Sequence record: BH153096.1
Reading direction: 5' to 3' (one strand)
DNA length: 381 nucleotides
DNA from: a phage
Shown one piece after another: positions 1 through 381 of this stretch. Under the pieces are notes generated by a model. It did no database searches. It saw only the letters and a program-made list of their open reading frames with translations, and was not told the DNA's origin. The position numbers and the translations under genes are program-made. The number at the start of each line of letters is the position of its first letter. Position 1 is the first letter of the stretch.

Positions 1-168
1 TGGAAGAGCCTTCAAAGGACAATAGAATTCAACAGGCAAACGCGACAATATGGTTATTAGACCGTCGCCTAACTCGTATAAAACGTATCACCGAGATATC
101 GAGTATTCGACAAGCTTTATAGGATCTAGTGGTGGGTAACGTAAACCTGGTATTTTAAATGATGTCGG
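1..168. other. Mirror image of an unidentified cloned insert adjoining the vector polylinker; origin and function unknown
   Basis: Contiguous with the vector image through a hybrid BamHI-position hexamer (window tctagg at 169-174, complement AGATCC). I recognise no family signature in the forward, reverse-complement, complement or reversed readings. Confidence 0.4.
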
Positions 169-174
169 TCTAGG

Positions 175-204
175 AGATCTCAGCTGGACGTCCGTACGTT
201 CGAA
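175..204. other. Mirror image (complement without reversal) of a pUC18/M13mp18-type polylinker, XbaI-SalI-PstI-SphI-HindIII; non-functional as written
   Basis: Five abutting 6-bp palindromes: agatct 175-180, cagctg 181-186, gacgtc 187-192, cgtacg 193-198, ttcgaa 199-204. Complemented base by base they read TCTAGA GTCGAC CTGCAG GCATGC AAGCTT, the pUC18 multiple cloning site order. Five contiguous hexameric palindromes are not expected in natural sequence. Confidence 0.8.
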
Positions 205-381
205 CCGTGACCGGCAGCAAAATGTTGCAGCACTGACCCTTTTGGGACCGCAATGGGTTGAATTAGCGGAACGTCGTGTAGGGGGAAAGCGGTCGACCGC
301 ATTATCGCTTCTCCGGGCGTGGCTAGCGGGAAGGGTTGTCAACGCGTCGGACTTACCGCTTACCGCGGATCACGCCATAAA
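205..381. other. Mirror image (complement without reversal) of the lacZ-alpha coding segment and downstream pUC backbone; not a CDS in this orientation on either strand
   Basis: The base-wise complement of 205-381 reads GGCACTGGCCGTCGTTTTACAACGTCGTGACTGGGAAAACCCTGGCGTTACCCAACTTAATCGCCTTGCAGCACATCCCCCTTTCGCCAGCTGGCGTAATAGCGAAGAGGCCCGCACCGATCGCCCTTCCCAACAGTTGCGCAGCCTGAATGGCGAATGGCGCC..., which I recognise from memory as lacZ-alpha/pUC18. Known internal vector sites appear as their mirror palindromes: PvuII (gtcgac at 292-297), PvuI (gctagc at 322-327), FspI (acgcgt at 342-347), NarI (ccgcgg at 363-368). Not verified by database search. Confidence 0.8.

Follow-up and report, generated by a model that had tools for sequence, protein, structure and literature searches.

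A mis-oriented clone read that almost certainly joins a Krischvirus (RB49-type) gene 13 fragment to a pUC18-type vector

Known sequences closest to the window

The cloning vector pUC18 and gene 13 of Escherichia phage RB49 (genus Krischvirus), which codes for a neck protein, the head-tail adaptor Ad2, are the described sequences that come closest to the window, the term used here for the whole stretch of 381 nt that was analysed. When positions 170-381 are complemented base by base, they are colinear with pUC18, beginning at the BamHI site, passing HindIII and the M13 primer sites, and continuing through lacZ-alpha into the backbone. Unlike pUC18, however, the window stands in parallel-complement register, carries AG in place of GA at 370-371, and shows an A belonging to the insert where the BamHI site would begin with G. 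The complement of 1-175 is identical to nt 357-531 of RB49 gene 13, corresponding to residues 121-177 of the protein, whereas the window differs from the phage gene in holding only an 18% fragment of it, which is linked to vector and does not stand in a biological orientation.

Two further kinds of sequence offer a comparison. In vector contamination, the problem addressed by UniVec and VecScreen, a genomic insert still carries pUC sequence that should have been trimmed off, as is the case in the window, but the orientation of the window hides the vector from every similarity search. Reversed-sequence decoys retain length, base composition and inverted-repeat potential and lose homology and coding signal, and the window does the same; unlike in such decoys, an intent behind the reversal has no support in the window.

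Orientation of the window and the reading as given

Four forms of the window were built: as given, reverse complement, complement-only and reverse-only. Complementing a strand without reversing it gives the same string as a plain reversal of the other strand, and all similarity was confined to the complement-only and reverse-only forms, where it covered the whole string colinearly. Two matches, to phage at 1-175 and to vector at 170-381, tile all 381 bases and overlap only at the GATCCT of positions 170-175. Altogether, 379 of the 381 positions agree with the two known sequences in parallel-complement register (E=4e-103 for the vector and E=3e-84 for the phage). One colinear chimeric clone with two mismatches explains every base; what the two parts are, where they join and how they are oriented are all established. 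It is practically certain that the window is a laboratory clone read consisting of a Krischvirus (RB49-type) gene 13 fragment and pUC18-type vector, complemented without being reversed. An earlier note on this sequence had classed it as a matter of data provenance and not a biological system, a judgement that stands now that both parts have been identified, and only in a non-biological orientation. Its title had called the window cloning-vector sequence, which is right for 170-381 but not for 1-169, where the sequence is that of gene 13, and vector makes up only 56% of the window.

The strands of DNA are antiparallel, and we know of no process that copies DNA in parallel polarity. A parallel complement is not producible by replication, recombination or transcription, and the string must therefore have arisen in data handling. 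Since it is a complement without reversal, both of its readable strands are reversed versions of real sequence. The earlier note had made this claim, and the searches carried out with the readable strands agree with it. Neither the window as given nor its reverse complement matched pUC18, the longest word shared with the pUC18 reference being 9 nt, and the longest word shared by the window as given and gene 13 was also 9 nt. By BLAST, neither of these two forms had a match in the plasmid collection, in the phage collection or among 92 fetched loci, the plasmid search with the window as given including the sensitive mode. The 26-mer at 210-235 as given was found in none of three collections (genome, metagenome and viral); its complement is present in 91 genome stretches.

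These results bear on a reading of the as-given window as authentic natural DNA, whose likeness to pUC18 and RB49 under complementation is coincidental or the product of an unusual biological process. Such a reading would have to accommodate agreement at 379 of 381 positions in parallel-complement register with the E values given above, a junction that is a cloning junction, and a string that as given is without a match in plasmids, phages and the genome, metagenome and viral collections. With strong complement-only matches on one side, empty as-given searches on the other and nothing found in its favour, it is regarded as refuted and retains a vanishingly small probability.

As given, the mis-oriented clone read encodes nothing and does nothing, and no biological system is present. 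Five ORFs of at least 20 aa can be called on it, none of which was on record when the protein and contig collections were searched. One of them, an 84-aa ORF with a TTG start at 88-342 on the minus strand, spans the junction between insert and vector, and it had no PHROG family and no PDB relative. Gene-calling programs would list an ORF of this kind. The window as given showed no promoter-like or terminator-like sites, and the sole Rfam match, to the sobemovirus frameshift element sobemo_FSE at 98-170 (minus strand), reached 17.5 bits against a gathering threshold of 55 (E=0.46) and arose by chance on the reversed string. A function for the as-given ORFs was considered and rejected; promoter and terminator matches were lacking as well. 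All of them, the 84-aa ORF included, are artefacts, which is what the earlier note had predicted for any ORF, promoter or motif call made on this string.

Vector, insert and cloning junction

The vector part was compared with a typed-in reference of the pUC18 polylinker and lacZ-alpha and with real records. Against the typed reference, complement-only 170-381 aligned without gaps over 212 nt with 210 identities. Against the plasmid collection, the same segment matched the pUC-derived vectors U36911.1, U36912.1 and GQ149343.1, among others, at 99.1% identity (E=4e-103 over the 212 nt), a value that excludes a chance match, as the earlier note had maintained. That note had also proposed comparing the complemented string with pUC-type vectors, which gave near-full identity over 212 nt in the plasmid collection, and running the window as given and its reverse complement as counterparts, which returned no meaningful match in plasmids or phages. 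It had placed the start of the vector at 169. The match does extend through 381, but it begins at 170, as position 169 is A where pUC18 has G; 10 vector-bearing contigs likewise match from 170.

In the complement-only form, the polylinker occupies 170-206 in the pUC18/mp18 orientation, as seen in the alignment and in the restriction sites. A site scan of this form located the BamHI half-site GATCC from 170, XbaI at 175-180, SalI at 181-186, PstI at 187-192, SphI at 193-198 and HindIII at 199-204. The order BamHI-XbaI-SalI-PstI-SphI-HindIII, with HindIII adjoining the GGCACTGGCCGTCG of lacZ, is that of pUC18, and it appears in the complement-only reading alone. The lacZ-alpha segment follows at 207-367 (complement-only), where 161 nt agree at 100% with native lacZ on the E. 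coli chromosome CP178308.1, and it holds two M13 primer sites in the same form, (-20) at 208-224 and (-40) at 228-244. The complement-only translation of this part matches the N-terminus of beta-galactosidase, approximately residues 5-63, in PDB entries (E=1e-31).

Identity with native lacZ ends at 367, while 24 vector-bearing contigs and the top plasmid matches continue to 381. The last 14 nt, 368-381 of the complement-only form, are pUC-specific backbone: pUC reads ...GGCGCC TGATGCGGTATTT at this point, and the backbone sequence (…GGCGCCTGATGCGGTATTT…) follows lacZ-alpha in the window with two mismatches at 370-371. The vector is of the pUC18 type rather than M13mp18 or pUC19. M13mp18, which presumably continues with lacZ after the position of 367 instead of passing into pUC backbone, was ruled out because native lacZ identity stops there and pUC backbone follows, and pUC19 was ruled out by the polylinker, whose orientation is that of pUC18. 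The mismatches at 370-371, AG in the window and GA in pUC, are the sole difference from the vector and correspond to the single 2-nt discrepancy near the end that the earlier note had reported. GA is found at this position in all 24 vector-bearing contigs that run on to 381, and the swap is private to the window sequence. Its simplest and probable cause is an error of base calling or reading close to an end of the read.

The remainder of the window had been left without an explanation in the earlier note. The match of complement-only 1-175 to 82263-82437 of NC_005066.1 (phage collection; 175 of 175 nt, 100%, E=3e-84) identifies positions 1-169 as a cloned fragment of RB49-type gene 13. The gene is annotated in NC_005066.1 at 81907-82839, and the insert corresponds to its nt 357-531. 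In the reverse-only form, frame 2 yields a 57-aa peptide equal to residues 121-177 of RB49 gp13, and this frame is the only stop-free one within 1-172 among the 12 examined over the four forms. By a rough, uncomputed estimate, one open frame of 57 codons among 12 may not be improbable in itself at 41% GC; it counts through the equality with gp13.

The 57-aa peptide gave no homologue in a word-indexed protein search, although gp13 is present in the collection searched, where the full-length protein belongs to a cluster of 134 members. The empty result is a limit of sensitivity and not an absence. Short queries can be missed wholly by a word-indexed protein search, as illustrated by this exact substring of 57 aa for which nothing was returned. 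The peptide was assigned no Pfam or PHROGs family. At the nucleotide level, neither E. coli genomes nor plasmids contained a match to the insert, and its 29-mers, searched as exact words in both orientations, were absent from viral contigs. A protein identical to RB49 gp13 also appears in NCBI nr under the name 'neck protein [Bacillus atrophaeus]', and this name is likely to reflect coliphage contamination or a mislabelled record.

The insert is 100% identical in eight Krischvirus records, namely two of RB49 and those of Sf20, kvi, AV108, vB_ESM-pEJ01, GoldenSnicker and FL38. Judged from these genomes, the 1-175 stretch of the neck gene appears to be invariant across the genus, and with identical sequence in eight genomes the strain is not assignable from the insert. 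The history of RB49 as the cloned phage of its group suggests that RB49 itself was the source; the Krisch laboratory probably deposited short reads of RB49 clones in the late 1990s.

Insert and vector meet at 170-173 of the complement-only form, where the GATC of the insert runs into the vector's BamHI half-site, as seen by comparing RB49 with the clone. The six bases GATCCT (170-175) are shared by both matches. RB49 reads ...CAGCCAGATCCTAAACC at the junction and the clone ...CAGCCAGATCCTCTAGAG, so that a native GATC of RB49 lies exactly at the junction and RB49 diverges from the clone 2 nt later. A native GATC fused to a BamHI half-site is the mark of a Sau3AI or MboI fragment inserted into a BamHI site, and the clone has this arrangement: the junction is at a GATC native to the insert, and vector resumes directly after it. 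No GGATCC occurs in the complement-only string; position 169 is A where pUC18 has the first G, and the BamHI site was not regenerated because the base preceding GATC is A and not G. A second GATC at 126-129 of the complement-only reading, inside the insert, was left uncut, which indicates a partial digest. The record starts in the middle of the insert, not at a restriction site. Taken as a whole, the junction suggests that a Sau3AI/MboI partial digest was cloned into BamHI-cut pUC18; no details of an RB49 library are given in Nolan et al. (2006; PMC1524935).

A series of three steps would account for the window. In the first, a pUC18-type vector would have received, at its BamHI site, a Sau3AI/MboI partial-digest fragment of gene 13 from RB49 or from a near-identical Krischvirus. 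The clone was then sequenced in a read that starts within gene 13, crosses the junction, the remaining polylinker and lacZ-alpha, and ends 14 nt into the pUC backbone. Finally, the string of the read was complemented without reversal during data handling.

Source of the reversal and vector sequence elsewhere

Within the reading as a mis-oriented clone read, the reversal may have entered either downstream of the public record or in the deposit itself. The former is slightly favoured, a lean that rests on priors. If it is correct, as seems somewhat probable, the record is an ordinary vector-contaminated clone read of RB49, and the reversal is a deliberate decoy or a bug in strand handling. Reversed strings, which keep their composition, are a standard null, no part of the string as given was found in the plasmid, phage, genome, metagenome, viral or protein collections, and the reversed window presents vector followed by gene 13 in sense orientation, a natural form of deposit. 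However, the chimera in its real orientation is likewise absent from the public collections searched (plasmid, phage, metagenome and viral): no phage or plasmid record covers at least 80% of the complement-only string, and neither the metagenome nor the viral collection contains the junction 27-mer in real orientation. The use of the window as a decoy has no direct support.

A substantial probability, somewhat short of even, is given to an error in the deposited record. The submitter would have intended a reverse complement and would have only complemented or only reversed the read. In such a form, vector screening would be blind to the pUC18 part, so that the record stayed untrimmed. The complement-only read is antisense to gene 13, which provides a motive for flipping it, and 212 nt of untrimmed vector escape BLAST-based screens in the as-given orientation, the plasmid and phage searches being empty. 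Against a faulty deposit, no public copy of the string as given was found in the genome, metagenome, viral or protein collections, and orientation errors of this kind are rare in archives. The fuller proposal, that the string as given is a genuine public record in which a complement-only error keeps similarity screens from seeing the 212 nt of pUC18 and from identifying the insert, is put forward tentatively and is rated a little lower again.

The significance of the window is one of data hygiene only, and no call of a gene, motif or structure on it has any meaning; all such calls should be dropped. Should the orientation error lie in a public record, that record needs both correction and trimming. 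It would then also represent a small class of mis-oriented records that systematically escape detection and that can be found with reversed vector sequences; a search of the archives with a reversed UniVec would be a cheap finder of similar hidden errors. If the window is instead a decoy, the earlier note recognised it correctly.

Vector sequence in its real orientation was also encountered elsewhere, and contamination of public assemblies with vector is widespread. The lacZ-alpha/M13-primer 26-mer occurs in 91 stretches of species-representative genomes. The carriers are mostly tiny contigs from unrelated taxa, including Nocardia and Streptomyces strains of the NBRC collection, Rhodobacteraceae of the CECT collection, and MAGs. 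The 26-mer is often located at an offset of 91-116 from the contig end, and 24 of the stretches run on into pUC backbone.
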